Shown one piece after another: positions 1 through 30,117 of a stretch of DNA of 30,440 nt. Below the pieces are notes generated by a model. The model was given only the letters and a program-made list of their open reading frames with translations, was not told where the DNA came from and did no database searches. Origin of the DNA: a virus. Taxonomy: Duplodnaviria > Heunggongvirae > Uroviricota > Caudoviricetes. The stretch is taken from the IMG/VR virus record IMGVR_UViG_3300035521_000566, one strand, 5' to 3'. The number at the start of each line of letters is the position of its first letter. Within the stretch, counting starts at the first letter, position 1. The translations under genes were made by a program, and so were the position numbers.

Positions 1-1276
1 CAGATTTACCTGACAAACCTTCTATTGCATAACAATCAATACCCGATTCTTTAACCCAACAACCTAAAATACCTGCAATCATTTCATCCGTGTATCCATA
101 GTTCTTAAAAAATGAATATACTTTTTGAGCACGTTCTGTCACATCACCCTCTACAGCAACAGTTGTCGACGAATCATCTTCCTTTACAACACAAGGGTCA
201 TCGTCATCGAGATAACCTTCTCTGGCAGCAGCAGTATCATCACTACTAGACGCAAATATACCTACTATTGCTAATACGCCAATTACGACAACGCCTACAA
301 CACCACCGACTGCAACAGCCATTGTGACACCAAGTGCAACTGCTATAGTTGCAAGAGCTTGTACGGCTGCAGCTATAATAGTTGCTATTGCGGTTGCTAC
401 TGCATGAGCAGCAGCCATAAGAAGTGAAAGCATCATTTTCAAAAATGCAGCAGCCTGCAATGCTAATGCCGCCTTAATTCCAGCCCAAGCCGCTGCAGCA
501 CCAGTTTTTGCAGCATTCTGTTGTTTCTTTTTGTCTTTCTCTTCATCTTCCTGGTCTTTTTTATCATCAGAATTTTCATCATCTTTGTTATCGGACTTTT
601 TGCTTTTGTCTTTTTGGTCTTTGCCTTTTTGGTCTTTATCCGAATTTGAATTGGATGCCTTTGCTGATTTATCATCATCTTTGAATTTATTCTTATCTTT
701 TTCTTTGGCAGCAGCACCCTGGTCTGATACATGATTCGCCTCATCTGCAGCAGTTTCAGCAAGACCCTCATAATCGCCTTTTGCATATTGAACTGCACCT
801 TTTGTGACATTTTTTGAATCTTCTTTATCAAGAGCCTTAGACGGATTCTTTGCCATCTGCTTGCCCTTTTCTTTCATGCCACGTTGCAAATTACCATTTT
901 TAACATTCTCTTTAAGCTGTTTTGCTTTCGCAGCATCGTTCTTTGCTCTATCAACAGTAGCTTTAGGATTCGTACTACCTTTGCCATTTGAATTATTGCC
1001 AGAACCCGAAGAAGATTTCAAACCTTCTACTGCTCCTTGAGCCGCACCTTGGGCATTCTCTTTGGCTCTTTCTTTATTACTCACCTTAGGATTGCTGTTA
1101 CCACTTACTTCAGGACTATTGTTAGCTCTGACATTTCCAGTACCCTCTGCGTTATTCATTTTCGTTGCACCAGAATTGCCAGCCTGAGCTGACGCACCGC
1201 CAGCTCTAGCTGAAGTATTTGCATTAGAAGGGCTACTATTTGATGACTGACTATTTGAATTTGTCTTATTTGCCAT
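1..1276 (-). CDS. VirB1-like conjugative cell-wall hydrolase with phage-tail lysozyme domain (3' end truncated by the window edge; not in the ORF track)
   Basis: Translated by hand: ATG at 1276 with GGGAG 9 nt upstream; open to position 2. MANKTNSNSQ..., long K/D/N/S-rich N-terminus, Ala/Val-rich hydrophobic stretch, then AQKVYSFFKNYGYTDEMIAGILGCWVKESGID, which fits the phage tail lysozyme pattern (G..ilGN...ES). Confidence 0.8.
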   Translation of the reverse strand, partial: MANKTNSNSQSSNSSPSNANTSARAGGASAQAGNSGATKMNNAEGTGNVRANNSPEVSGNSNPKVSNKERAKENAQGAAQGAVEGLKSSSGSGNNSNGKGSTNPKATVDRAKNDAAKAKQLKENVKNGNLQRGMKEKGKQMAKNPSKALDKEDSKNVTKGAVQYAKGDYEGLAETAADEANHVSDQGAAAKEKDKNKFKDDDKSAKASNSNSDKDQKGKDQKDKSKKSDNKDDENSDDKKDQEDEEKDKKKQQNAAKTGAAAAWAGIKAALALQAAAFLKMMLSLLMAAAHAVATAIATIIAAAVQALATIAVALGVTMAVAVGGVVGVVVIGVLAIVGIFASSSDDTAAAREGYLDDDDPCVVKEDDSSTTVAVEGDVTERAQKVYSFFKNYGYTDEMIAGILGCWVKESGIDCYAIEGLSGKS

Positions 1277-2795: not shown

Positions 2796-3125
2796 TTAGA
2801 AAAATCTACTCTGAATCAACGGTATAACTGTTGTACCGAGGTCTTCGATGGTTTTCTTACCACCCTGGGCAATGTTAGAAACAAATGTCCATCCACCTGC
2901 AAGTAATGCACCACCGACAATCAACATAACGATAGGACCTACCCATCCGCCTGGAGCTGACTGAGGTGAAATGAACTTCTGAGCAATCTTAACGATAGCT
3001 ACAATAATCATAACAACACCAACAAGCATTATTAAGCTTCCACCCCATGTGATTAACTGGCTCTTAGAATTCTCTAAGAAACTTGTAAGGTCCCATGCCA
3101 TCTGGATAAAGTTCAATGTACTCAT
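2796..3125 (-). CDS. VirB2/TrbC-like pilin (two TM helices, 109 aa)
   Basis: AGGAG RBS; two hydrophobic helices (WGGSLIMLVGVVMIIVAIVKIA; WVGPIVMLIVGGALLAGG) separated by a short loop; size and context fit VirB2-like proteins. Confidence 0.6.
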   Translation of the reverse strand: MSTLNFIQMAWDLTSFLENSKSQLITWGGSLIMLVGVVMIIVAIVKIAQKFISPQSAPGGWVGPIVMLIVGGALLAGGWTFVSNIAQGGKKTIEDLGTTVIPLIQSRFF

Positions 3126-3321: not shown

Positions 3322-6300
3322 TTATTCATCTTTCTTACCCTTAGAACGATTTTTTGTAGACTTTGTTCTCTGCTTAAGTGCATCAGATTTTGTCTGAGTT
3401 ACTTGCTGTCTTTGTGTTACAACCTGCTGTCTCTGCTCGATTACAGTGTTTTGTTCCACAACTGTATTCTGCTTAACAGTTTGTGTCTTAGGTGCCGTTG
3501 TCTGAGTAGGTCTAGCTGAAACCTGCTGCTGTTTAACGACAGTTGTCTGAGTAGGTCTAGCTGGAGCCTGCTGCTGTTTAACAGTTTGTACCTTAGGTGC
3601 AGAAGCCTGTGCCTGACCTGCGGCTGGTGTTCCATATTTCTGATGATAATTCTCCATCTTCTGATTCTGAGAATATGTATCAGCCTTACTCTGGTAATAC
3701 TGCTGCTTCAGTGAACCATCAGCTGCTCTGTTAGCCTTAACCTGTGCAGCACCCTGTCTAGCACCGTTAATCATAGCCTTTCTAACTGACTGCTTACGTG
3801 GAGCTTCGCCACTTTGTGTCTGTCCAGCCGTTGTTTGTTGTGACTGACCAGCTGATACATTAGCATTTCTGCTCTGAACCTTCTGTGCGTTTGCCTGCTT
3901 ACCACTTACATTCTTAGGCTTATTGTCGTTCTTAGAATTAGTAGTATTAGCCGTACTACGTAATTCCTGAGCCTGACTGCGTTTTGCTACTGCTGCAGCT
4001 GATGTACGCTCCTGAGCCTTTACAGCTTTCTTGTCAGCCTTGGTTTGTGCTTTTTCGCTCTTAGCTGTGTTCTTAGCTATCTTATTATCCTGAGCTTTCA
4101 CTTGCTTTGTCTGACCCTTAACCTGCTGTTCGATACCCTTCTTCTGTATCTTCTGACCCTTAGCCTGCATCTTCTGACCTTTGGCTTGCATCTTCTCGCC
4201 TGATTTCACATCACGCTTACCACTAGACTCTTTATGTTTAGCAGCTGCTAACTCTGCTGCACTCTTAACCTGCTGAGCTTTACCTGCTACATACAAACCT
4301 GCACCTGCAAGTCTTGTACCTGGAGTGCTCATAGCAGCTACGCCCATAGCAGACATTGCAGCTCCCTTGGCACCATCCTTGGCTGCCTTCTTCTTAAGGT
4401 CTTTTCCTGCTTTCTTCTTAGCTTCACCCTTAGCGACTTTATCATCGCCTTTGGCTTCTTTCTCAAGACCGTTAGCTTCTTTATTAAGACCTCTAGCTTC
4501 TTTGTCAAGACCTGCCTGCTCCTTGATTTCTCCATGTCTCTCACCTATTGACTTACCACTGCCACCTACTGATTTACTATCATCGGCTGACTTACTATCG
4601 CCAAGGCTTGTACCGATAAGACCTGCTTCCTTCTTGTCGATTGCGTCTCTATTAGAGTCTGGATTATCAATACGAGCGTCGTCATTATTGTTCTCGGTAG
4701 AATTGTCTGCATTATTATTGTTAATTGCAGTTGCACTGTTAGATACACCATTTCCGCCATTTGGACCGTCGTCTCCATCATCTGGACCATTACCATCTTC
4801 ATTCTTAGCAGCGTCTTTTGTAATTGTATTGCTTGCCATAGCAGCACCAAGACCAGCAGCTGCTCCGCCTAAAGCTCCGCCAATTACTGACTTACCACCT
4901 GCTGCACCTGGAGAACCACCTGCAACAACATCAGTCTTAACATCAAGAAACTTATCAACAATCTCTTCAGCTGCTTCAGATAACGACTTGATAAACTTCT
5001 TACGCACCTTCAAAGCCTTCATCATAAACCAGCCATAGAAGATAGCTAAGAATATCAAGATAATAGGCATACCCCAATTCACAAGTGAATTTGAATCTGA
5101 TGCATTAAATGCAGCATATAATGTTCCTGTGAATATATTAGGTATTGAAAACATAATTTCTATAATAATGTCGAACAAGAATATTGTACCAATTACTTCT
5201 AAAATCATTACAAGGGCATAAGTAATAAGTTCTGCAATTGACTTGATTGTGCCAAGCAAAGCAAACGGAACTGCTTTCACAACCTGGAACATTCTTGAAA
5301 TATTTGAGAACATCATTCCAAGTCCATAGAAATAACCAACTACTACATAACATAATAGCATCATAAAGCAATTCAACCAATATAATGCTGAAGTAAGACC
5401 TGTACCTACAATATTAACTGAGTAATGTGACTTACGAACAAATGTAGATGCAATATTCGAAGGCGAATAACACGTTAAAGCTGATGTCGTGAAAGACGTA
5501 TTCAAATAGTTATACATTGAACATGTTGAAAGTCCATAAGAACCAGCAACAGTATAAGTATTACCAGTTGAATCAGCACCATAAGAATTTTGCCATGTTG
5601 GGGTGGAACCAGAATCTTGATAACTGCCACCAACATTTTTTAATCCACCATTTGCATATATGTTAATTGCATAACTGCTATTACCGCCAGATGTTTCTAT
5701 CAACTGGTCATCATTATTTGTATCTTCTTCGATTGCAGTGCCAAAATGATATAAATCAACAAGACGACCTCGATGTGATTTATAACATTCGTCGTCTTTA
5801 GAAACATAAAATGAACTAACATCAACAATCGTTGTGAACTGATTTAATATAACATTGCCTTTTTCAGCAGTAGTTGCCCATCCTGTAAGTTGGGCTTTTA
5901 CGAGTGCTTCGAATTCACCTGATGTATAATATTTGCCGTCCATGTATCTATTCAAAATATCAGTAGTCGTAGATATTATAGAAGAACGCTGAAAACTGGT
6001 GTTAGCAGAAGTAGAAGCAATATCTTCTGAAACAGTTACAGACACAACTTCATTATTCGAACTTGAATAACTATAATCGGTAAACAATGTATCCCCTAAA
6101 ACAGCACGCTGTGTAGCAAACGCATATGCTTTATTTATCTGAAACGCAATATTTCTAACATTTATTTTGGTTGTACCTGATGCGACACGAACACCTTTGT
6201 TGTTCGTTGTTGATGATAACTTCAATGTTGTGCCGTCTGCACTATTCAACGATAATCGTCCGTGCTCAGCCCATGATTCAAAATCAACAAATGTTGACAA

Positions 6301-7392
6301 TATTATTTTCGTAGCAGGCGATACTCCTGTACCTATATCTTCAGACATACTATTAAGAGCCGATGTATAAATTCCACTCAACAACGGAATGCCAATTACA
6401 AGAAATGCAATTCTAATTATATACTTCTTAAGCATTGATTTCCATTTACCCGTATGCCTAAATAACACGATTGATACAACCAGTACCACGAAAAATATAG
6501 GTATTAAAACTTCCCACGAAAAATTATATAATAATTTATACCACTTAGCTAGGACAGTTACTAAACCAGCAAAGGCTGTATTTGCAAGACCACCTGCTGT
6601 TGTTGATGTATCATAGCCCGACATCTTAAGCTTACTGCTAGAAGCAACCGAATTTACACCACTGTAAAACAACTGAAATGGATTCAGTGCTTTTAATACT
6701 GTAAATATAATTTGGAAAAACATATCTAATCCAATAGATAACATATACAGCAAATAGATAAGCCCGCCTGTTATCACATTCATCATATGTACGCTTACTT
6801 CATATCCTGTCTTATCAAGACCTGCAGTTGCTAAAACAGCACCATAACACGCATAATCATACACTACGTTTGTTTTAGTTCCACCGCTACTACTTACAGG
6901 TATATTAGAAAATGTATCATATGATGACGATGTTGTAGCCATAGTAAGCAAAGACGATAGCCATGATTTACCACCATACGCTACAAACAAACCTGCATTA
7001 CCTGCAATAACAGATGTATTGTCTTCATACTTAGAATTTAACATACCAACACCTGGGATATTACCTGTTGAAGCGTCTGGCGAAGAATTCGTTGAAAAAT
7101 AAATAGAAGCAACTTCACCAACATCCTCCAACGAAATAGCAGACTCTACAGTCTCCTCATTGCCATCGCCAGTAAGTACATCTGCAGCTGCATCAATTAC
7201 CTCAACTGTATTTTTCACAAAACCTGTAACAGCTTTACAAGCTGTACTGACAGTAGACTTTACAGCACTCCACGCCTTCTTAAGCCAACCAGCTTCGGCT
7301 TGCTGCGGCGTTACTAATGCCAGACAGAACATACAGGCTATAAGAGTGAAAATAATCTTACATGAAATTTTTTGTGTCTTTGAAACTTCCAT
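3322..7392 (-). CDS. Giant VirB6-like polytopic membrane protein (1356 aa) with large loop and ~500-aa low-complexity C-terminal tail
   Basis: Signal-like N-terminus (..QQAEA|G), about 6-8 hydrophobic segments in two clusters around a ~330-aa loop, then a G/A-, N/D- and K/Q/A-rich tail; TAATG-coupled to the VirB4-like gene. Confidence 0.6.
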   Translation of the reverse strand: MEVSKTQKISCKIIFTLIACMFCLALVTPQQAEAGWLKKAWSAVKSTVSTACKAVTGFVKNTVEVIDAAADVLTGDGNEETVESAISLEDVGEVASIYFSTNSSPDASTGNIPGVGMLNSKYEDNTSVIAGNAGLFVAYGGKSWLSSLLTMATTSSSYDTFSNIPVSSSGGTKTNVVYDYACYGAVLATAGLDKTGYEVSVHMMNVITGGLIYLLYMLSIGLDMFFQIIFTVLKALNPFQLFYSGVNSVASSSKLKMSGYDTSTTAGGLANTAFAGLVTVLAKWYKLLYNFSWEVLIPIFFVVLVVSIVLFRHTGKWKSMLKKYIIRIAFLVIGIPLLSGIYTSALNSMSEDIGTGVSPATKIILSTFVDFESWAEHGRLSLNSADGTTLKLSSTTNNKGVRVASGTTKINVRNIAFQINKAYAFATQRAVLGDTLFTDYSYSSSNNEVVSVTVSEDIASTSANTSFQRSSIISTTTDILNRYMDGKYYTSGEFEALVKAQLTGWATTAEKGNVILNQFTTIVDVSSFYVSKDDECYKSHRGRLVDLYHFGTAIEEDTNNDDQLIETSGGNSSYAINIYANGGLKNVGGSYQDSGSTPTWQNSYGADSTGNTYTVAGSYGLSTCSMYNYLNTSFTTSALTCYSPSNIASTFVRKSHYSVNIVGTGLTSALYWLNCFMMLLCYVVVGYFYGLGMMFSNISRMFQVVKAVPFALLGTIKSIAELITYALVMILEVIGTIFLFDIIIEIMFSIPNIFTGTLYAAFNASDSNSLVNWGMPIILIFLAIFYGWFMMKALKVRKKFIKSLSEAAEEIVDKFLDVKTDVVAGGSPGAAGGKSVIGGALGGAAAGLGAAMASNTITKDAAKNEDGNGPDDGDDGPNGGNGVSNSATAINNNNADNSTENNNDDARIDNPDSNRDAIDKKEAGLIGTSLGDSKSADDSKSVGGSGKSIGERHGEIKEQAGLDKEARGLNKEANGLEKEAKGDDKVAKGEAKKKAGKDLKKKAAKDGAKGAAMSAMGVAAMSTPGTRLAGAGLYVAGKAQQVKSAAELAAAKHKESSGKRDVKSGEKMQAKGQKMQAKGQKIQKKGIEQQVKGQTKQVKAQDNKIAKNTAKSEKAQTKADKKAVKAQERTSAAAVAKRSQAQELRSTANTTNSKNDNKPKNVSGKQANAQKVQSRNANVSAGQSQQTTAGQTQSGEAPRKQSVRKAMINGARQGAAQVKANRAADGSLKQQYYQSKADTYSQNQKMENYHQKYGTPAAGQAQASAPKVQTVKQQQAPARPTQTTVVKQQQVSARPTQTTAPKTQTVKQNTVVEQNTVIEQRQQVVTQRQQVTQTKSDALKQRTKSTKNRSKGKKDE
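3497..3582 (-). repeat. 45-nt in-frame tandem repeat (~1.9 copies; ARPTQTTVVKQQQVS)
   Basis: GTTGTCTGAGTAGGTCTAGCTG at 3497 and 3542; CCTGCTGCTGTTTAAC at 3522 and 3567. Confidence 0.9.
4141..4194 (-). repeat. 21-nt heptad repeat (KMQAKGQ KMQAKGQ KIQK)
   Basis: Visible at both DNA and protein level. Confidence 0.8.
4450..4512 (-). repeat. 21-nt heptad repeat x3 (GLDKEAR GLNKEAN GLEKEAK)
   Basis: Visible at both DNA and protein level. Confidence 0.85.
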
Positions 7393-9266
7393 TATAATCT
7401 ATTCCTCTCCTTTCTGTGTGCATCAATGCCTAATTGTAAATTCTGCTGGAACACTACGTTGTCAAAATCACGACGAATATAACAAATATCCTGATTTCGT
7501 GTTGTGACAAGCCGTGCCAAGTCTGGTGGAATCTCCTGCCCCATAAGCTTCTGATAATCCTGTACATTCGTCTCTGACATATTACCTAAGATAGTGTAAT
7601 TTGCTTTATCAAAGTGTGAAAACTCTTTATCCTTCAACATCTTCTCAATGTTGTTATAAAGATAAACCACACGACCCCCATTGTCCCAAAGACGTTCACA
7701 ACAAGTTGTAATATAGTCTTTTACACCATCGTCAATAAGTTCAGTACCGTGAATGATAACAGTATCACCCCTGCCAAGAGAACCTACGGCAAATGCAACA
7801 ATATTTACAAGCTGTGCCATTGCGATACCTTTACCACGGAGCATCAAGCTTGAGAAATCATAGATAACTCGACGTCCGTCCTTTGCACCATCAATAGCTG
7901 GCTTTGTAGTTGTATTAAATAAATCACCATTGTTTGTCAGCATATTCTTAAATGTTACTCTAAGCACTGACAAAGCATGTAATCTTTCATCATCTCTTGC
8001 TGTAGCATTCACCATTGCTTTATATTCTGTATCAAGATACGATACAAACATCTGCAGCTTTGGTACCTGCTCATGTGGAATACCTACAACACGAAGTTTC
8101 TTACGATTACGAATTGCGTCATCATACCACATTCTATTATCTACATAGAACTTTGTAGCAATTTCCTCAAGAGAACCTCGAATGATACTTCGGTCACTAT
8201 CCGTTGTCTGATATGCCTGTTCAGCCATAAGAACCAGTTTCTGCATCTGAGCTGGAAATACAGATAATTCTTCATCTTCAGTACCAAACATTTCAAACAT
8301 ATTTACATCGCCATGATTCATATCAACTCTATATGTAAATGAATTAAATGCTGGTCCCAACTCATCTAACTTAGCACCATCTAATATAAGATGCACTGTT
8401 CTGTGTCCGCCTAACAGACAACTCTGAGAAATCTTACTACCCCATACATCAGCTGTATGGGCTCTGTTCAGCTCAGAATCATAATTCTCATTTGCAATGA
8501 CTGTATGATGTCTGTAATTATCTACATCAAACAAAACCGCTGAGTTATTTACATCGCCAATCATATAACCTACATACTCACCAGCTGGGTCTTCCAGACC
8601 ATGTGTTACGATATTATATGAACCTGCATATTCTGTTGATGTAAAATAAAAGCCATGACCGAGCTTCTTATCTGGCGGATTGAAAAGCTCTGTAAGTTCT
8701 CTTCTCTGCTCACCCATATAAGGAGCTGCCTCTAATGTGGCAAATCGGTCTATATACAGTCTTGAAATCTTCTGAAGTGCGTCATCCAATTTCTCTAATG
8801 TTGGTGCCTTTACAAGCAGACGATACTGACAATGTAAATATGATGCTCCATTCTGAATTTCCTGAGCAACCATCTGCAAATCATATTCCCTTGTTGCTGC
8901 TCTCATCTTTGTTGTATTTGTACCGACCTGACCCTGTTCTTTCGCATTCATTCCTGCAACCTGTTCAGCTTTGGTCTGATGCTGTGTCAACCACTTTTCA
9001 TCCATACGATGTATGTTTTCAAAGCAAAATGTTGAAACATCCTGTGCCAAACCACTTGGTATTCTGTTAATACCCCAGAATACACCGAAATTATCGGTTG
9101 CACCCTCTGTATGAAAGAAGCTCAACACTGAGGCTACTGAGTTGTCAATTTCAAAGTAATCACTATGAAATACATACTTCTCATTTGGCTTCATTGCAAG
9201 TAGATGTGGAAAATTCGAAAATGCATGTGGGTCTTCTTTTTTCTTCTTCTTTTTGCCAAATGCCAT
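7392..9266 (-). CDS. VirB4/TrsE-like protein with degenerate Walker motifs (624 aa)
   Basis: N-terminal DYF..., ...LQMVAQEIQNG..YLHCQYRLLVKAPTLEKL...EQRRELTELF layout fits TrsE/VirB4; the C-terminal order (RVIYDFSSL, TVIIHGTE, RVVYLYN, ANYTILG) follows the VirB4 C-terminal domain, but there is no GxxxxGK[ST] anywhere. Confidence 0.65.
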   Translation of the reverse strand: MAFGKKKKKKEDPHAFSNFPHLLAMKPNEKYVFHSDYFEIDNSVASVLSFFHTEGATDNFGVFWGINRIPSGLAQDVSTFCFENIHRMDEKWLTQHQTKAEQVAGMNAKEQGQVGTNTTKMRAATREYDLQMVAQEIQNGASYLHCQYRLLVKAPTLEKLDDALQKISRLYIDRFATLEAAPYMGEQRRELTELFNPPDKKLGHGFYFTSTEYAGSYNIVTHGLEDPAGEYVGYMIGDVNNSAVLFDVDNYRHHTVIANENYDSELNRAHTADVWGSKISQSCLLGGHRTVHLILDGAKLDELGPAFNSFTYRVDMNHGDVNMFEMFGTEDEELSVFPAQMQKLVLMAEQAYQTTDSDRSIIRGSLEEIATKFYVDNRMWYDDAIRNRKKLRVVGIPHEQVPKLQMFVSYLDTEYKAMVNATARDDERLHALSVLRVTFKNMLTNNGDLFNTTTKPAIDGAKDGRRVIYDFSSLMLRGKGIAMAQLVNIVAFAVGSLGRGDTVIIHGTELIDDGVKDYITTCCERLWDNGGRVVYLYNNIEKMLKDKEFSHFDKANYTILGNMSETNVQDYQKLMGQEIPPDLARLVTTRNQDICYIRRDFDNVVFQQNLQLGIDAHRKERNRL

Positions 9267-10144
9267 TACATTAAGTCTCCTTTCTTATAGATTGAACCTA
9301 AAAACTCAGTAATATCGTCTTCATACAATGCAACACAAGATTTGAACATTCTTGTTGAATTTTCTACCTCTGCCTGAAGTACATTTTTATTCTGAGTCAA
9401 GGCTTCTTTGTTATTAGCCTTAATAACTAAATACTGATGAATAGATTTGAACTGTGCTCCTACATAATTCTGCAGTGTATCAAACTGGTCTTCCGCCAGA
9501 GCCTTAAGTTCATCATCATTCTTGCCAAGTCTATCGTATTTACGTTTCAAGGCTGCAACCTGTCTGTACACCTTCTGTGGTTCCTTGACTGTTACGAATA
9601 TTATATCACAATTAGTACCAATCTTACGAAAGAATGAATCTACTCGTGAAATAATTGCGTCTTTGTCTTTGTCAAATAACAAGATTGATGCAGCACCAGT
9701 AATTCTGTAAATATAACCGAATGAACCATCTACGTATTCAATCAGTCCATTCTCGTTAATTTTACGAGTTCTGACAATTCCCATAAACTCATTTGCTGGC
9801 ATCGTTCTTCTGACAATTACGTGTCGATTTAGTTTCGGTATATATTCCACCAACGTAGGTATTATCTGCACTTTCATTCGCCGTGTTTTGTCATATGATA
9901 CCATAACGGATGTTAGTCCCATCCAAATAATGCCAAACAAAATCTGTTGCCACAACTTACCGTCAGCTACGAATGAATGAGAAATCATCCAGAATAAAAC
10001 AACAGCTGAGCCGAGGAACGTCAGAATAACTTTAATCGGTAATGGTTTCAAACCCATACCGTCTTTACTCTGAATAGCAATTTCCATATCAGCATAACTG
10101 GCATTCAAATCGTGTGGAATCTTATATGCCTCTTTCACTGCCAT
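9266..10144 (-). CDS. VirB3/PrgI-like two-TM protein fused to a TrsD-like soluble domain (292 aa)
   Basis: Start moved to ATG 10144 (MAVKEAY) because AGGAG lies 11 nt upstream; two TM helices, then ~200 soluble residues; TAATG-coupled to the VirB4-like gene. The TrsD-like call is by recalled pattern and position. Confidence 0.5.
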   Translation of the reverse strand: MAVKEAYKIPHDLNASYADMEIAIQSKDGMGLKPLPIKVILTFLGSAVVLFWMISHSFVADGKLWQQILFGIIWMGLTSVMVSYDKTRRMKVQIIPTLVEYIPKLNRHVIVRRTMPANEFMGIVRTRKINENGLIEYVDGSFGYIYRITGAASILLFDKDKDAIISRVDSFFRKIGTNCDIIFVTVKEPQKVYRQVAALKRKYDRLGKNDDELKALAEDQFDTLQNYVGAQFKSIHQYLVIKANNKEALTQNKNVLQAEVENSTRMFKSCVALYEDDITEFLGSIYKKGDLM

Positions 10145-10196
10145 AACAGGTATAACTCCTTTCTCTTTAAATTCTTTTAATATATAACGAAATGCA

Positions 10197-10218
10197 AGGA
10201 GAGTCGAAAGACTCACCT
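10197..10218. other. Short hairpin between the topoisomerase and VirB3-like genes
   Basis: AGG(A)GAGTC-GAAA-GACTC(A)CCT; weak U-tract on the minus strand. Confidence 0.35.
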
Positions 10219-10248: not shown

Positions 10249-12426
10249 TTATTTACGCTCAAGAATAATGCCCATAGAACCTTTTTCAGTCTTGCCGTAA
10301 TGTACTGTACAGGCAAAAGCATATCCTTTTTTAGAAATGCAGCCATCAATATCAATTGACTTGCCCTGCTCTAAGAGTGCCTTCTCATCATCAGTAAACT
10401 TATGCTGACACCACTCATCTGGCACACCCCGTTTTGCATTAGCAAAACCTGTTCTCTCAAATCCTACGAACTTATGTCCGTTATATGTCTGCTCAGCCAA
10501 CTTACCAGTAACGCCATACTCATTACCAGTCTTACTGATAAGTCCTGTAATTTCGATTTCATAGCCATCAAATAACTGGTCTAACTCATCCTGTGTGAAC
10601 TTGTGTCCACCCCACTCTGAGTTGATTCTGACTTTCTTGCCATTCCATGTTCCTTCTACCTTAGTTTTCTGAACCCCTGCGTTTTCCATAATGTTTAACT
10701 CCTTTCGCATCGTAACACTATTTTTCTTCATTGTTTCTATATCTTCACGAACCATTTGCTGAATCTGCTTCAAACACTCATCAGGATTTGCCTTGCCTGC
10801 TGCAATATCTTTCATCTCATTCATAACCTGTTCGGTAATCTTGAGATTTCCGATATTCGTACCAGGAAGCAATCCGTAACTCATCTGTCCATACTGCGTC
10901 ATTGACAGCTTACCCTTTTTCTCTAAGAGAAGTGGATATTTAGATTTCTCATTCGTAACTTCAGCATATGTACTCGTTCTTGTAGCACCAGTTCCTACAT
11001 CGTATTTTTCGAGCTGCTTCATCAGCCACTTCATTGTAGGTACTGGAGGCTTTGGTGGAAAACCTTCATGAATATAAGGCTTAGCTATTGTTCCAAGACC
11101 CTTGCCTGTATCATCGTCATCGTTGTCATCCATATCCGAGAAAATAGCTTTATAACCCATCTTCTTCGGAACTGAAGCTGAACCTGTAAACGACGGATAC
11201 TTTTCCAAGTGACCTTTCTGTGCCTCATACTCGTAATCTTCTCCAAGCATTGCCAAATAGTTACGAGCTAATATTGTATAAATCTCAACAGCACATGAAC
11301 CATACTGCTGAAGGTCACTTAATGATTTTGGAACATTTAATCCAGGTCTGTTAGCACCATGTGCACATCCTGTCTTAACATGTGTGTTACGAGCCTGTCT
11401 ATGAGTTAATAAACTCTTATCAACGCCAACAAGGTCTGCAATTGCATCAACCTTTGGCAACAACTCGTTAAACTGCTCTGGCGTAATGAACTTATCTTCT
11501 GTTCTAGGATAAGAAACAACCTGTGCTTCGTACATCTTCTGATATACTGCAAGCACATCCTTTGCTTTTACGCCCTTACCAGCTAACATTGAAGATAATG
11601 TTGACAAATCAATCAACTTTGGTGGAGCCGTATGCTTTATCTCTTTACTATCTACAATCACTGGCGAATCACTGTAATTCTTAGGAACCTGTGATTTATC
11701 TGGGAACGACGGCTCGTCCTTGCTGGAAAAGACATTTCCATTCTCATCTTTAAACTTGTTCTGATAGAACGGAATCTTTTTATACTCTGCGACAGCCTTT
11801 AAACCGTCGCCTACTATCAGCACCATACTGGACTTTAATCGTCCCTGTCTCAATACTGAAAAACCATCACCAAACTTCGTTGCAATTCTTGTAAACTGCA
11901 TTGACAAGAAATCCCACTTGGAACGATACAGGGCTTTCACATAGTCCATATCCTGTGCCATACTTGGAATTGTCTTACGATTCACAAATGCCTTCTGAAT
12001 AGATTTAGGAGCTTCATCAGCAAAGTAAAGTCTTGACCACTTCTTAGGTCTTAAATTCAGCTCATCTAAAATCTCCCATGCAAGCAACTCGCCTTCGCCC
12101 GTTGGGTCATCATCAGTTGCAATCGCAATCTCATCACACTGTGAAAGTACATCTTTAATCTGCTTCAACGTGGCTGCTGTGTCTTTCTTCTTGGTCCTTG
12201 TCCAATTGAAATCCTGCTCATTCCACGGAAGATTCTCAATATTCCAAGTCTTATATCTTGCAGCTAATGCAGGTGCAACCTGTTTCTCAGGGTCTACATA
12301 TTCATATAAGTGTCCCCTCGCTGCTACAAGTACATAATCTTCGCCATTGTACTTCCCCTTTGTTCCACCCAACGCAGCTGCAAAGTTCCGCATCTGTGAA
12401 GGTTTTTCGTTCAAAATACCTATCAT
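10249..12426 (-). CDS. topB: Type IA DNA topoisomerase (topoisomerase III-like, conjugative-element type) with two C-terminal repeats
   Basis: TOPRIM ILNEKPS, ARGHL, IATDDD..GE; QGRLKS; active-site SYPRTED (Tyr codon 11511-11509); GTGATR; two repeats (EWGGHKFTQDEL..G..I.I.G.ISK.G; EWCQHKFTDDE..G..I.I.G.ISK.G). Confidence 0.92.
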   Translation of the reverse strand: MIGILNEKPSQMRNFAAALGGTKGKYNGEDYVLVAARGHLYEYVDPEKQVAPALAARYKTWNIENLPWNEQDFNWTRTKKKDTAATLKQIKDVLSQCDEIAIATDDDPTGEGELLAWEILDELNLRPKKWSRLYFADEAPKSIQKAFVNRKTIPSMAQDMDYVKALYRSKWDFLSMQFTRIATKFGDGFSVLRQGRLKSSMVLIVGDGLKAVAEYKKIPFYQNKFKDENGNVFSSKDEPSFPDKSQVPKNYSDSPVIVDSKEIKHTAPPKLIDLSTLSSMLAGKGVKAKDVLAVYQKMYEAQVVSYPRTEDKFITPEQFNELLPKVDAIADLVGVDKSLLTHRQARNTHVKTGCAHGANRPGLNVPKSLSDLQQYGSCAVEIYTILARNYLAMLGEDYEYEAQKGHLEKYPSFTGSASVPKKMGYKAIFSDMDDNDDDDTGKGLGTIAKPYIHEGFPPKPPVPTMKWLMKQLEKYDVGTGATRTSTYAEVTNEKSKYPLLLEKKGKLSMTQYGQMSYGLLPGTNIGNLKITEQVMNEMKDIAAGKANPDECLKQIQQMVREDIETMKKNSVTMRKELNIMENAGVQKTKVEGTWNGKKVRINSEWGGHKFTQDELDQLFDGYEIEITGLISKTGNEYGVTGKLAEQTYNGHKFVGFERTGFANAKRGVPDEWCQHKFTDDEKALLEQGKSIDIDGCISKKGYAFACTVHYGKTEKGSMGIILERK

Positions 12427-15385: not shown

Positions 15386-17095
15386 TTAATCTTCTGACTC
15401 TTCTGTCGTATCAATTTCTGAGCTTACATCCTTATTGCCAACATTTGATACAGCACTTCCTGAATACCGTTCTATATCAACATCGTATAAACCGTTTATA
15501 TCATCAACATGATAGAATGTAAATACAACAGAAACCGTATCAATCTCGCCATATGTCGAGAGTGAATATGTTGAATACTGATACTGAGTATAATACATTC
15601 CTATATAAACTACATCAGGCTTGCCCATTTTCTCTAATACATCAGCTTCTAACATACCGAACTTGATATTATAATCCGTGAACTCCATATCAGGCAAATC
15701 TATATTTTCATATGCACAGTTTAGTACATTTATTTCTAATCCAATAGCACCATTATCAATCATATCCGAATAAGTCGTCTCATCTGATTCTTTTAATAAT
15801 ACAAGCATTGCACCTGGATATTGAGAATTTGTAAATGTAACTGGCGATGAATCATCTTCTGGTGTCTGATATTCCCAACCGTAATTTATAACACGATTTG
15901 GCTTAATATATAAAGACTCATAATCTTTGTCTGCGATAAAGCGAATATTATTCAAATCCTCGTTTTTAATATCTTCGTATTCGTAGTCAGATACATTATG
16001 TGTATCAGACAGACTGTCTGATTCATAAAAGAACTTAGTTCCGTCTTCATCCTCATCTACATTCAAATCTATTGATTCTTCTGCTTCTGCATCAAGCACT
16101 TCATCTGCGTCAATGGATGTCTGAATTCGATTCTTATAATATGCCATATCATCATCCGTAACATCGTCATACGACGTAAAATTCACAGTTATATCAGCTG
16201 ACATTGACATATCACCAATTACCATTTCATCTGCATCATCACCTATCATATCCTTTGCAGCATCACTTGAAATCACGACATTTGATACTGTAATCTGGTC
16301 TAACAGCATAGTATCTTTATTGATGATAAATGTTGCCATACCATTTTTAGCACAGGCAAGAATATCCATATATTCATCAATAGCATTCATATCTTCTTCA
16401 TACTTATCAAAAAACGCCTGCATAGAGTCTGTCTCTGAAAGACTGCCATAATCAAACGTAATCTTGTAAGTTGTATCTAATGTTTCCATTGTGTAATTGG
16501 CGGGTGCGTCCTTTACAGCGTCATAAAAATCCTTTGCCATCTGGTCACCATCCCAAGTTGAACGATACCACGTTGTGTCATCGTCTTCACCTAATGTATA
16601 ATAATATGTATCATTTGGCTCATCATAAAATGTTACATATGCCGACTTTGCCGTATCGGACTCACTATAATTATTGTCTGTCGATACTGTTGATACATTT
16701 GTTGTGTAATCATTTTCTACACTCATGCCGAATCCAATACCTCGTTTCAAAAGAACGGTACTGGTATAATTGCTATCAACATCGACATCCATCTGTATGC
16801 CATCCTGAGTAACACGCATCTTAAGTGTATATGTATTTGATATACTAATACGCATACTGTTGACAGACGCCATTGCTTCGAATGATTCCAATAATGTATC
16901 ACGAATTATCTCATCATCATCCGTCATGACAACTTCAGTTGTCTTATCATTCTTGCCACATCCTGTCAAAAGCATACTTGCCGAAAGAGTACAGGCAAGA
17001 CCTGCTGCAAGCAGCTTGCATACTCTTTTCTTTGCTTTTTTTAATGTCTGTGTCTTTCTAATTGTCGTCTCCTGGAACTTCGTTAGTGTGCTCAT
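15386..17095 (-). CDS. Large acidic lipoprotein (569 aa), possibly with a LolA/LppX-like N-terminal domain
   Basis: Basic N-region, then LLTG|C lipobox; beta-rich N-domain; C-domain with FGMLEADVLEKMGKP. Fold call is tentative. Confidence 0.65.
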   Translation of the reverse strand: MSTLTKFQETTIRKTQTLKKAKKRVCKLLAAGLACTLSASMLLTGCGKNDKTTEVVMTDDDEIIRDTLLESFEAMASVNSMRISISNTYTLKMRVTQDGIQMDVDVDSNYTSTVLLKRGIGFGMSVENDYTTNVSTVSTDNNYSESDTAKSAYVTFYDEPNDTYYYTLGEDDDTTWYRSTWDGDQMAKDFYDAVKDAPANYTMETLDTTYKITFDYGSLSETDSMQAFFDKYEEDMNAIDEYMDILACAKNGMATFIINKDTMLLDQITVSNVVISSDAAKDMIGDDADEMVIGDMSMSADITVNFTSYDDVTDDDMAYYKNRIQTSIDADEVLDAEAEESIDLNVDEDEDGTKFFYESDSLSDTHNVSDYEYEDIKNEDLNNIRFIADKDYESLYIKPNRVINYGWEYQTPEDDSSPVTFTNSQYPGAMLVLLKESDETTYSDMIDNGAIGLEINVLNCAYENIDLPDMEFTDYNIKFGMLEADVLEKMGKPDVVYIGMYYTQYQYSTYSLSTYGEIDTVSVVFTFYHVDDINGLYDVDIERYSGSAVSNVGNKDVSSEIDTTEESED

Positions 17096-17927
17096 AATAA
17101 TATCCCTTCTCCAGAGTTTGAGTGTCGTAATAATAGCAAGCCTCTGGTACTGCTATTACCTGAAATCTCACTGAACTTCCAGCCATTGTACCATTACAAG
17201 TTGTGAGAACAATTATTGATGTGTCTTTTGACGGTGTTTCTACACGCTCGTAGATTGCTTTGGACTTCAAATCATCTATTAAAGCTTGATAGTTATCACT
17301 GCCGATTTGATATGGAATATCATATACCATATCAGAAGCGTCTCCGTGAATTGCTGTCCAAACTACCCAACGCTCAGCTCTGTCTGGATAATAAACATAA
17401 ATATATTTATATCTGTTTGCATCTGACTGATTCTCATAACAGGCAGTCAGCTGTCCGAATGCTACATCACGATTCGACATTCTGTGACCAAAAAATAACA
17501 GGTGAGCATCATCAAAATCCATCGGTTCTGCTGGATTTAAAATAGAACCCCACGATGAACGGCTCTTGTTAATATCACGCCACAAATAATATGTCTCGTT
17601 AACCGTTTGTTCCTGCATAACATAATAATCTATGTTTGTATTAGGTACATATATCCATCTCTGCACATCAGGATTGATAGACTGTAATTCGTCAAAATCA
17701 ATTCTTCGCAGCAGATTTTCGTCTATCTTGAACTCTAATCCATTAACAGGCTGCGGTTCTTCTCCAATCACTTTCTCTTTTATTTCTTCAACTACTTTAT
17801 TGTCATCATCAACAATAGAATCCTTTATGATGACATAAATGATAATGCAACCAGCTATTATAATTGCAATCATACTTACGATTGTTGCTATATATGCAGG
17901 TGCTCTTGATTTTTGATGTTTTTTCAT
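17058..17927 (-). CDS. srtB: Class B sortase
   Basis: Start at ATG 17927 (AGGAG 8 nt upstream). N-terminal TM; IDFDELQSINPDV..WIYVPNTNIDYYVMQ; FFGHRM (His); VLTTC (Cys); VRF (Arg). Confidence 0.88.
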   Translation of the reverse strand: MKKHQKSRAPAYIATIVSMIAIIIAGCIIIYVIIKDSIVDDDNKVVEEIKEKVIGEEPQPVNGLEFKIDENLLRRIDFDELQSINPDVQRWIYVPNTNIDYYVMQEQTVNETYYLWRDINKSRSSWGSILNPAEPMDFDDAHLLFFGHRMSNRDVAFGQLTACYENQSDANRYKYIYVYYPDRAERWVVWTAIHGDASDMVYDIPYQIGSDNYQALIDDLKSKAIYERVETPSKDTSIIVLTTCNGTMAGSSVRFQVIAVPEACYYYDTQTLEKGYYYEHTNEVPGDDN

Positions 17928-17958
17928 CAAAAAGACTCCTTTCTTGTGAACTGAAGCT

Positions 17959-17987
17959 AGTATAACATAAAAACACTCATAAATCAA
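17959..17987 (-). promoter_or_regulatory. P4 promoter (sortase operon)
   Basis: TTGATT (17987-17982), 17 bp, TGn-TATACT (17964-17959). Confidence 0.7.
17976..17987. promoter_or_regulatory. Candidate operator 4, CTCATAAATCAA, overlapping the P4 -35
   Basis: Motif copy read directly from the sequence. Confidence 0.6.
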
Positions 17988-20057: not shown

Positions 20058-23000
20058 TTACTCTTCATCAGAGTTATCATCATTTACTTTAATCTTACGA
20101 TAACCAAATACACCGATAGTTGACATTACAGCTAAGAACATAATGATAAGTGCAATCATCATAAGTGCTCTTGCATGATTTACAATACCTGTCTGTACCT
20201 TTGTGGTAGTCTTGACAGTTACTGTCTGGTCTTTGTCTTCGATGTCCTTATGCTGTGCGATGATATTTCCATCTTTATCATAGATTGTCTCGTAGCAAAC
20301 AAGTACGTGTCCATCTTTATCAGATGTATCAACTGTAAATGTCTGCTTAACTGAGCCTTCCATCTTCTCTACCTTGAAATCAGATGTTGCTGTAGCAACG
20401 ACCTTATTCTCATCTGACTTATCGACAATCTGACCAACTACCTTATACTCTGAACCTTCAACAAGATTCTCATATGTGATAGCATCCACAACCTTGGCGT
20501 CTGTAGCCATTGTAACAATCTTAGAACGTTCATCGTCTGCAGTTGCTACAGTTGAAATAGAACCGCTGTATGTGGTCTGGTCTGCATCATCAATGTCTTC
20601 ATGAGTTGCAATTGTCTTGTCATTATATGTGAGTGACTCAAATGCTACTACAGTCTTGCCTTTAATAGCACCATTCGGAATAGTGAACTCAACATCAACA
20701 GTTCCATTAGCCTCTTCAGCCTTGAATGTAACAGATGATGTGAACTTATCAGTGTTAGTAGTCTCACTTTCCGTAACTTCTGTAATAGTATTATCATCGG
20801 TCTTTGTTACCTGCGATGTATCAACAGTAGTTTCTACTTCTGTCTTTGACTGTTCAGAAGCCTTATATTCAATCTTCTTACCAGTTGCCTTATCCATCAA
20901 AGTACCAGTGATTACATAAGTCTCGCCAGGAATCAGATTTGTATAAGTTACTGTATCTACAATCTTAATCTCTGCAGATTCATCTTCAAAGATGTGTAAC
21001 TGATGCGTCTTAGTTGTCTCATCAATAGCTGATGTAGCAATTGAAGGGAATGCAACTGTCTGGTCATCATCGTTAATGTCCGTATGAGCAGCAACCTCAA
21101 CACCTTCATACTCTACTCTTTCAAATGCTACAACAGACTTACCAGATATATCAATACTCTTGAAGTTGAATGTAATATCTATGCTGCCGTCTGCCTCCTC
21201 AGGAGTGAACTTAGCACTTGCGGTAATTGTATGGTCGTTCTCATCAAGAAGTTCCTTACCTGTTGCCTTGTCCATAAGTGTACCTGTTACAGTATACTCT
21301 TTACCAGGAACAAGATTTGTGTAAGTTACTCTATCAACGAGTGTTACATCGTTTGTTGCCATACCCATATGTTCGCCTGTACCTGCATCTGTTAATGTAG
21401 TACCGATAGTTGGGAAGTAAATTGTCTGGTCTGCATCTTCTGCATCCTCATGTCTTACGACATTAGTATCAACAACTTCTCCGTTCTCGTCCTCAGCTCT
21501 GGTTACTGCCTGCTCGAATACAACGAATGTATGTCCAGCATATTCAGTAGCGTCGAACTCAAACTTAACTTCTACTGTTCCATCATGCTCTTCAGCCTTG
21601 AATGGAGTCTCTGCAGTAATGTCTGTAAGCTTACCTGCAGTCTTGTCATAAAGAGTACCCTTCATGACATACTCTGTACCAATAACGAATCCTGTATAAG
21701 AAACTGTATCTGTAATAACAGTATTCTCAGCTGCTGGACCCATGTTGACATTTGTCTCACCGTAAGTAGCTACTGTGCCAACCTTAGGGTTATAAACTGT
21801 CTGTGCCTCATCATTGATGTCTTCATGCTTAGCGATTTCAACATCTGAGTAGAACAGCTTCTCGTACACAACGGCTACATCTAAGTCTTCAACATCTGTA
21901 ACATTGAATACTACTTCTGTAGTTCCTTCAGAACCTTCGGCTGTGAATGCTGCTGTAACAACAACATCTTCACCATTAGAGTTCTGATATGCCTTGCCAG
22001 TATCTGGATTCATAAGAGTACCAGTTAATGTATATGATACACCTTCAACAAGTCCCGTGTAAGAAACTGTATCAGTTACAGTGATTAAATCTGTACTTGT
22101 ATCAATATCAGCTACTGTCTTAACTGCTACAACATGAACCGACTGGTCTTCATCGTTAATGTCGTCATGCTGTGCTACAAGCACATCATAGCTGCCTGCT
22201 GCAGCCTTACGATAAATATATTCGTATGCAACATATGTGTTACCAGCCTTATCAGTTGTATCAAACTCATAAGTTATATCTACGCTACCTTCTGAATCTT
22301 CTGGAGTAATCTCAAGAATTGATTCAGATGTTACCTTCTGTCCTGTTGCCTTATCTACTAAGTAACCCTTAACCTGATAAGTATCACCTGGTGTAAGGTC
22401 TTTATAGTAAACGGTATCAGTGAATACATGCTTACCATCCTGGTCTACAAAACGATAATTTACATCTTCGTTTGTTGACTCAGTATTGTCTGTATCTTCT
22501 GTATTATCTGAACCTTCGACTTCAGCATCACCAGCTGTAGCTATCTCATCGGATTTAACTCCAAGTCCATTGTCAACAGCAATTGATGTGTCAACTTCTG
22601 GGAATGTTACTGTCTGTGCTTCGCTATCAATGTCCTTATGCTCGGCAATCAGAACATCACCATCATAAGCCTCTTCAAATACTACTACAGAATGACCTGC
22701 AAGTTCAGATGCATTGAATGCAAATGTTACAGATGTTGTTCCACTTGACTCCTCAGGAATGAATGTTGTGTCTACTCTTACTTCTTTTCCATCAGCGTCT
22801 ATAACTACTGCCTTAGAATCTTTGTCCATCAGAACACCCTTAATAGTGTATTCTGTATTAGGAGTTAATCCCTTATAAGTAATATAGTCCACGAGTTCAA
22901 CTGAATCAAGAGCTGCACCTTCATGTGAACCTGTATCACAGTAACTTGCTACTGTTTCAAGTTCAGGGTAACGAACTGTCTGCTCTTCGTCGTCTAAATC

Positions 23001-30035: not shown

Positions 30036-30117
30036 TTCACTTACTCCTTTCACATTATATAATGTTTTCTGCTCGTATATCAGTGTTTTTCACTAATATG
30101 CATAAGCTTGCTTTATA

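Follow-up and report, generated by a model that had tools for sequence, protein, structure and literature searches.

The window analysed here, a stretch of 30,440 nucleotides from the IMG/VR virus record IMGVR_UViG_3300035521_000566 (assigned to Caudoviricetes), is a block of genes that all lie on the minus strand (Table 1). It belongs to a larger element, the 184-kb JGI contig Ga0376477_0000002, which encodes, letter for letter, all the window proteins that were looked up and of which about 105 kb were inspected. The gene at the centre of this report, located at positions 7392-9266 between the genes for two membrane proteins, codes for a protein of 624 amino acids (aa) that a first-pass annotation, made from the sequence alone, had taken for a relative of VirB4, the ATPase of type IV secretion systems (T4SS), with both Walker motifs eroded. 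As that annotation had noted, the open reading frame (ORF) is intact, preceded by a good ribosome-binding site (GGAG, 10 nucleotides upstream of the ATG) and translationally coupled at both ends, where it shares a TAATG overlap with each neighbouring gene. Pfam, NCBIfam and PHROG scans of the 624-aa protein gave no match, a single-sequence search of PDB sequences returned chance matches only, and tblastn against phage records produced no match. A look-up of sequencing runs yielded no RNA run and one DNA run with a small share of words, from which nothing was concluded on expression or habitat.

Because the missing motifs are informative only if the protein is a VirB4 homologue, homology had to be established first. 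An AlphaFold2 model built on 31 homologues (mean predicted local distance difference test score (pLDDT) of 70, mostly 80-96 over residues 250-610) comprises a putative VirB4-like N-terminal domain, approximately residues 30-230, and a RecA-like C-terminal domain, approximately residues 222-616. The best Foldseek match of this model is the VirB4 protein of Thermoanaerobacter pseudethanolicus (4AG5/4AG6; E value of 4e-13, target TM 0.75), followed by TrwK, HerA and TrwB, and VIA-align superimposes the model on 4ag5_A with a Z score of 31.5 and a root-mean-square deviation (rmsd) of 2.9 Å over 349 residues; the next different fold, DndH-C, scores about 9 units lower (Z 22.7). The fold is the same as that of 4AG5/4AG6 and of TrwK of R388 (7O43, 8RTD), and the alignment with TrwK (8rtd_O) covers residues 31-616 (Z 22, rmsd 7.4, with the N-terminal part of the model at low pLDDT). 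At approximately 13% identity to 4AG5 and TrwK, the non-catalytic VirB4 motifs of 4AG5, namely the N-P-F/L motif and the Q-x-x-N helix, are kept in the family, whereas the P-loop and the catalytic Asp-Glu pair are absent from the 624-aa protein. Sequence comparisons point in the same direction: a profile of 80 diverse family members matches 4AG5 from sequence alone (E value of 1.9e-5), and a motif-intact homologue (P0264) and two 650-aa Lactiplantibacillus VirB4 proteins, whose nearest NCBIfam models are NF045975 and NF045971, match gene 7392-9266 with E values of 3e-19 to 7e-23 (7e-23 for P0264). The alignment of the Lactobacillales VirB4 sequence with the 624-aa protein starts at residue 5.

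Other proteins with a RecA-like core fit less well. HerA, the C-terminal domain of DndH and TrwB/VirD4 share this core with Z scores of 17-23, that is, 9-14 units under VirB4 (20-23 for the HerA/DndH-type translocases and 17 for TrwB, against 31.5), and they have neither a match to the VirB4 N-terminal domain nor the T4SS gene context. Identity as a coupling protein of the VirD4/TrwB type is not borne out, the 624-aa protein having no Pfam match and no N-terminal transmembrane segment, and the window contains no recognisable NurA, Sir2 or Dnd neighbours. The 624-aa protein is a genuine VirB4 homologue; the original guess was right, and the structural check that accompanied it places VirB4 above the other members of the FtsK/HerA superfamily.

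No [AG]xxxxGK[ST] string is present in the 624-aa protein, in agreement with the initial report that it lacks GxxxxGK[ST], and among the window ORFs only the topoisomerase has such a string, located at its C terminus and not representing an ATPase P-loop. Both degenerate segments lie exactly where the first-pass annotation had put them: residues 253-278 (HHTVIANENYDSELNRAHTADVWGSK) in the place of Walker A and residues 502-509 (TVIIHGTE) in that of Walker B. Within the former, the segment NENYDSELNRAHTADVW aligns where motif-intact relatives have G(R/N)P(G/R/S)(S/M)GKS. In these relatives, the order is strand, G(R/N)PxxGKS and helix, whereas in the family a loop of approximately 10-50 variable residues without a glycine-rich P-loop leads into a helix that starts with S/A-x-x-W-G-S-K; in the 624-aa protein itself, the replacement is a variable loop devoid of glycine. 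Walker A is absent at the aligned position from the 624-aa protein and from all 293 relatives compared. The members encoded on SAP020A, pELF2, pGKT2, pGS01 and pJM4A likewise have no Walker A. Among 271 retrieved proteins, a Walker-A-like string occurs in only four, and at the homologous position in P0264 only, which also reads IMDEGQ where the family has IIHG.

The substitutions in the Walker B strand are equally consistent. The family profile and the alignments put His-Gly on Asp-Glu, as had been proposed, and the same profile places the family string viihGad on the Walker B string VVDEAW of 4AG5. The Walker B Asp is replaced by His (H506) in 279 of the 293 members and the catalytic Glu by Gly (G507) in 289, while 289 members retain D501 and 281 have Glu or Asp at position 509. 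In the former Walker A region, W275 is retained in 282 members and K278 less strictly (254), and over the whole protein W275, D501, R599, N322, T454 and N488 are conserved at 96-100%. The LYNN string, which had been assigned to the position of the sensor motif (A/T)TQ, does align roughly with ISQN of 4AG5, with the exact position being less certain; here Y537 is shared by 269 members, and 271 have Asn or Asp at position 538. With a variable loop in the place of the P-loop and His-Gly in that of Asp-Glu, it appears very unlikely that this family binds and hydrolyses ATP in the canonical way.

The family is large and widely distributed. More than 1,394 full-length homologues (60-92% identity, in 90% clusters) were found, all without Pfam domains, and at the 50% level the family falls into 261 clusters; some homologues have long N-terminal extensions, which are of low complexity and unrelated to the 316-aa neighbour of the VirB4-like protein. 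Relatives with 52-67% identity are encoded in at least 96 species genomes from two phyla, mostly Actinomycetota (Streptomyces, Nocardiopsis, Arthrobacter, Kribbella) together with Clostridia and other metagenome-assembled genomes. Tblastn search of plasmids detected 195 records with the family or its motif-intact sisters, among them Gordonia pGKT2, Rhodococcus pGS01, a Streptomyces plasmid, staphylococcal plasmids of the SAP020A type, Lactococcus pJM4A and many plasmids of Enterococcus faecium, including pELF2; the matches on Lactiplantibacillus and Levilactobacillus plasmids that were examined are motif-intact VirB4. Pairwise dN/dS had a median of 0.15 (range 0.04-0.37) over 1,410 pairs, which are pairs of actinobacterial orthologues with 52-67% identity to the 624-aa protein rather than of its closer homologues. 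In a quick maximum-likelihood tree, the three motif-intact sequences are placed on one branch (length 1.98, 100% support), so that a single loss event suffices.

Table 1 Features of the window and of the VirB4-derived gene
Feature	Positions	Strand	Basis
First 425 residues of an 838-aa membrane-anchored cell-wall hydrolase, putative VirB1-like role	2..1276	-	Phage_lysozyme2 in the full gene (L006:11318-13834)
109-aa protein with two predicted transmembrane segments	2796..3125	-	31% identity to SAP020A_018 (staphylococcal system)
1356-aa polytopic membrane protein	3322..7392	-	About 8 hydrophobic segments, no family match; coupled 3' of the VirB4-like gene
VirB4-derived protein, 624 aa, without Walker A and Walker B	7392..9266	-	AlphaFold2 model, Foldseek, VIA-align, family profile
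LYNN, approximate position of the VirB4 sensor (A/T)TQ motif	7650..7661	-	Aligns approximately with ISQN in 4AG5
Former Walker B strand, hhhh-His-Gly-x-Glu/Asp instead of hhhh-Asp-Glu	7740..7763	-	Profile and alignments
Strand beta1, variable loop and start of helix alpha1, in the place of Walker A	8433..8510	-	Model and alignments; no GK[ST]
316-aa membrane protein	9266..10216	-	TAATG overlap with the VirB4-like gene; predicted transmembrane segment
Type IA topoisomerase (Toprim, Topoisom_bac, DUF3945)	10249..12426	-	Pfam
Sortase-like protein	17058..17987	-	Weak Sortase match below the Pfam cut-off
Surface adhesin, 3331 (or 3325) aa, SpaA and TQ isopeptide-type domains	20058..30053	-	Pfam; transmembrane segments at both ends

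The VirB4-like gene sits within a T4SS gene set, with relaxase, coupling protein, hydrolase and membrane partners on one element. The cell-wall hydrolase, which has four predicted transmembrane segments, continues downstream of the window, where a MobL relaxase is also encoded. An operon approximately 40 kb from the window start encodes a ClpB/ClpA-like AAA+ ATPase of 597 aa, whose two Walker A motifs are intact, an uncharacterised 767-aa protein and a VirD4 coupling protein of the CD1115 type; the latter (L016:12426-15626) has an intact P-loop (TRAGKGQT) and Walker B motif (FMLDE). In SAP020A, pGKT2, pELF2, pJM4A and pGS01, the order of membrane partner, VirB4-like gene and giant membrane protein recurs along with the topoisomerase and the hydrolase, and most of these records also carry a MobL relaxase, a coupling protein or both. 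With regard to coupling proteins, two observations were made in passing. The coupling-protein gene of the element that carries the window ends early and is followed, within L016:15626-18750, by a 383-aa ORF and then by a 360-aa ORF resembling the rest of the coupling protein. The coupling protein of SAP020A (L002:14931-18800) is slightly off-consensus, reading TRGNKGQT and ILEELGN against TRAGKGQT and FMLDELGN in the element that carries the window; the notion that the staphylococcal protein has no P-loop was rejected as the product of too narrow a pattern, the P-loops of VirD4-type proteins ending in GKG. Upstream of the window, a 3.8-kb stretch (L011:2343-6126, approximately 102.5-106.3 kb of Ga0376477_0000002) has no called gene.

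The 316-aa membrane protein shows 38% identity to RS00230 of pGKT2 and 27% to SAP020A_021. Its pGKT2 orthologue (35290-36180 of the record) faintly matches positions 21-287 of the 894-position model NF045975 (E value of 1.3e-4), and in motif-intact Lactobacillales plasmids the N-terminal part of the same model matches a separate upstream ORF. By way of this weak link, the 316-aa protein is probably the counterpart of the membrane module that forms the N-terminal part of VirB4 in Mycoplasma-type integrative and conjugative elements; membrane module and VirB4 appear to be fused in some lineages. The 1356-aa protein, counterparts of which adjoin the VirB4-like gene in SAP020A, pGKT2 and pJM4A, might by its position take the role of VirB6. 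The topoisomerase is also encoded alongside the system in SAP020A, in pGKT2 and in pL125-1, whose VirB4 is motif-intact. The sortase-like protein probably anchors the adhesin, and in the sister plasmid pL125-1 a sortase adjoins an isopeptide adhesin.

Motif-intact VirB4 proteins of monoderm bacteria (pLS20/CD1110/Mbov_0397 type), exemplified by the 650-aa 'conjugation-related ATPase' of Lactiplantibacillus plantarum pL125-1 and KP unnamed2, have the same two-domain architecture and length as the family described here, to which the Lactiplantibacillus proteins show 22-27% identity (E values of 1e-13 to 1e-23). The neighbourhood is shared as well: a gene for a small membrane protein lies upstream, and the systems also encode a lysozyme, a topoisomerase, a coupling protein of the CD1115 type, a sortase with an adhesin, and a ClpB-like AAA+ ATPase of approximately 600 aa. 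The motif-intact relatives, however, keep G(R/N)PxxGKS and hhhhDE, whereas the family has neither, and the motif-intact plasmids include some typed as conjugative, whereas family-bearing plasmids are mostly typed as mobilizable or non-mobilizable.

We consider it probable that the 624-aa protein is a VirB4-derived pseudo-ATPase that serves as a scaffold, and it seems that, in a widespread class of conjugation systems of Gram-positive bacteria, VirB4 is a component other than the motor. Under this scenario, the whole VirB4 architecture would have been kept and the protein would occupy the VirB4 slot of a Gram-positive conjugative T4SS, after one ancient event had turned the glycine-rich P-loop into a variable loop and the Walker B Asp-Glu into His-Gly. 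The protein would then act as a cytoplasmic and inner-membrane assembly platform at the channel base, the structural role of VirB4 in solved machines, and the work of DNA transfer would fall to the coupling protein, perhaps helped by the ClpB-like AAA+ ATPase. Precedents are an active-site mutant of Agrobacterium virB4 that still stabilised VirB3 and VirB8 (cited in PMC2653234), VirB4b of Rickettsia (PMC2653234) and the laboratory transfer of pGKT2 from one genus to another (Jung et al. 2011, cited in PMC5640721).

Several points weigh against the scaffold interpretation. The former active-site region, with W275, H292, D501, H506, G507, E/D509, R532 and R598-R599, is among the most conserved parts of the protein, and this pattern would fit a new function at this site at least as well as an inert scaffold. 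The transfer of pGKT2 was not tied to the VirB4-like gene and could have been helped by other plasmids of the donor, and in pELF2 the genes that the transfer study reports to be essential lie in a different operon than the VirB4-like cluster (PMC13492992). Furthermore, the N-terminal half of the structural model is of low confidence (pLDDT below 60 over most of residues 1-230), and the tree comes from a quick, unfinished search and is unrooted. Finally, for the window's own element, the claim that the gene is the only VirB4 covers detectable homologues in 105 of 184 kb.

Since few parts of the protein are as conserved as the former catalytic region, the foremost rival explanation is that a non-canonical site has been rebuilt there: the protein could still be an enzyme or a nucleotide-binding protein whose pocket is formed by His506, Glu/Asp509, Asp501, Lys278 and Arg598-Arg599. 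These residues are 87-99% conserved over the 293 members, more than mere filler needs, an acidic residue is kept two positions past the lost Glu, and the RecA-like core is modelled at high confidence. However, no glycine-rich loop is left to hold the phosphates, and the loop that replaces it varies in both length and sequence; K278 is located two turns after the start of the helix, and distant members have L, Q, Y or A instead; and the invariant Gly at the position of the catalytic Glu removes the general base. On balance, we regard such an activity as rather unlikely.

An improbable alternative is that the VirB4-like cluster forms an apparatus for some other task, such as export of surface proteins or adhesins or inter-cell contact, with transfer proceeding via other genes, as in the tra operon of pELF2. 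Transfer of this plasmid requires traC, traD and traG (PMC13492992), and the cluster is tied to a sortase, giant adhesins and cell-wall hydrolases. Nevertheless, it accompanies a MobL relaxase and a VirD4-type coupling protein in the element studied here, SAP020A, pGKT2 and pGS01, and sister systems whose VirB4 is intact are classed as conjugative. In pELF2, a linear plasmid conferring vancomycin resistance, the 2026 transfer-gene study (PMC13492992) examined the operon at 71-80 kb. This operon encodes TraC, a 'putative VirB4 analog' of 420 aa with two transmembrane helices, which is proposed to stand in for VirB4 in the atypical enterococcal transfer system of this plasmid type and which, according to the authors of the study, is not homologous to VirB4 in sequence. 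The family member of pELF2, a 656-aa VirB4 homologue, is encoded by another gene (41029-42999). The main-text parts of the study that were searched make no mention of this VirB4-fold gene or of the neighbouring AAA+ ATPase. The region 31075-42999 of pELF2 (NZ_AP022343.1) encodes a ClpB-like AAA+ ATPase of 649 aa, proteins of 1213 aa and 718 aa, an LPXTG protein, a 288-aa protein and the 656-aa Walker-less VirB4 homologue; this cluster, too, is absent from the text that was searched.

The 624-aa protein could also be silent and work alongside a second, canonical VirB4 whose gene lies elsewhere on the element, in the way that VirB4b of Rickettsia stands beside VirB4a (PMC2653234), and the roughly 79 kb of the element beyond the inspected 105 kb would leave room for such a gene. 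The first-pass annotation had suggested searching the flanking sequence for a second VirB4 or a coupling protein: the coupling protein was found, intact, whereas no second VirB4 was detected in the 105 kb, where canonical VirB4 queries match gene 7392-9266 only. On five complete family-bearing plasmids, the NF045975 model, which as a control matches all five motif-intact plasmids with E values of 1e-45 to 1e-57, finds no second VirB4 and yields faint matches only, namely one to the Walker-less gene itself (pGKT2), three to ORFs of approximately 300 aa and one to another short stretch on pJM4A. The three ORFs were taken to be the membrane partner, with homology shown for pGKT2 only. SAP020A has no other ORF of VirB4-like size. 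PF12846, PF03135 and PF01935 likewise gave no VirB4 match on the five family-bearing plasmids, but in a control on five Lactobacillales plasmids PF12846 failed to detect even motif-intact VirB4, so that the Pfam negatives carry little weight. Rickettsia VirB4b (RvhB4-II; PMC2653234) is a faster-evolving paralogue that belongs to an effector system of Gram-negative bacteria and stands next to the canonical VirB4a, whereas the family member reported here is the only VirB4 homologue detected, is strongly conserved and resides in Gram-positive conjugative elements. A silent partnership seems highly improbable. That an ordinary VirB4 has here become a degenerate allele or is decaying into a pseudogene, which the missing motifs and nothing more would suggest, is virtually precluded by the intact, coupled frame, by the same substitutions recurring in 293 relatives of two phyla and by the median dN/dS of 0.15: the gene is not decaying, just as the first-pass annotation had argued, and is under purifying selection, as the homologue comparison that it called for now shows.

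The scaffold interpretation raises the question of the motor. A specific orthologue of the ClpB-like AAA+ ATPase is encoded in 29 of the 30 family-bearing genomes (54-64% identity, against 35-40% for housekeeping Clp proteins), and an AAA_2 domain was detected on all five family-bearing plasmids. A two-ring AAA+ ATPase of approximately 600 aa is, however, also present on all five plasmids with motif-intact VirB4, the pL125-1 protein showing 29% identity over its full length to that of the element studied here. It is therefore not a specific replacement but an older shared part of this T4SS class, and the idea that it substitutes specifically for the lost VirB4 ATPase was rejected, although it may have made the motif loss tolerable. 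Of the initial proposal that energy may come from another ATPase outside the window, the existence of such ATPases is supported, in the form of an intact coupling protein and an AAA+ ATPase, whereas the AAA+ ATPase cannot be regarded as a dedicated substitute. A predicted complex of the AAA+ ATPase with the C-terminal domain of the VirB4-like protein scored 0.07, a 'no answer' that is no evidence either way. More tentatively, and with clear doubt, one may envisage a large, hitherto unrecognised branch of Gram-positive conjugation machines without any VirB4 ATPase, in which VirB4 would be a pseudo-enzyme platform whose rebuilt pocket docks or senses a partner, and the motor would consist of the coupling protein and the ClpB/ClpV-like double-ring AAA+ unfoldase, which such systems would have possessed beforehand. 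This putative branch would occur in Streptomyces and other actinomycetes, in gut Clostridia, and on staphylococcal plasmids and enterococcal plasmids with vancomycin resistance. As a separate observation, a number of the AAA+ orthologues (P0275-P0279, P0298, P0349 and others) are approximately 955-967 aa long and carry a LAGLIDADG domain (PF14528) between the two AAA+ halves, an insert that looks like an intein; in some Streptomyces genomes (among G017, G021, G023 and G025), the AAA+ halves match approximately 1.1-1.9 kb apart in one open frame.

VirB4 is treated as the one universal component of T4SS and is held to be the motor of all bacterial conjugation machines. It serves as a marker to find and classify conjugative elements (PMC4027160), and according to a 2025 review the Gram-positive VirB4 homologues keep all Walker motifs (PMC12857230). 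In the literature searched, which covered few subscription journals, we came across no account of Gram-positive conjugation systems with a VirB4 family that lacks the Walker motifs. If the Walker-less family is indeed the sole VirB4 of its systems, the ATPase activity would be dispensable in at least one lineage, and nature would have separated the structural role of VirB4 from its role as a motor.

The curated profiles of Pfam and NCBIfam miss the Walker-less proteins, and the gap extends further. Pfam AAA_10 (PF12846) gives no match at E values of 0.01 or below to the motif-intact VirB4 of the five Lactobacillales plasmids mentioned above (NZ_CP013751.1, NZ_CP017355.1, NZ_CP031175.1, NZ_CP015858.1 and NZ_CP060187.1), in all of which NF045975 finds VirB4 with E values of 1e-45 or lower; for three of these plasmids, the typing goes no further than 'mobilizable'. 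The PF12846 miss is a detection gap for the whole T4SS class. Of the 195 plasmids with the family or its motif-intact sisters, MOB-suite types 184 as non-mobilizable or merely mobilizable. Laboratory transfer has nevertheless been reported for pGKT2, and pELF2 is shown to transfer (PMC13492992). With the profiles missing the proteins and the typing at odds with these transfers, conjugative capacity, including that of resistance plasmids, is probably under-counted.

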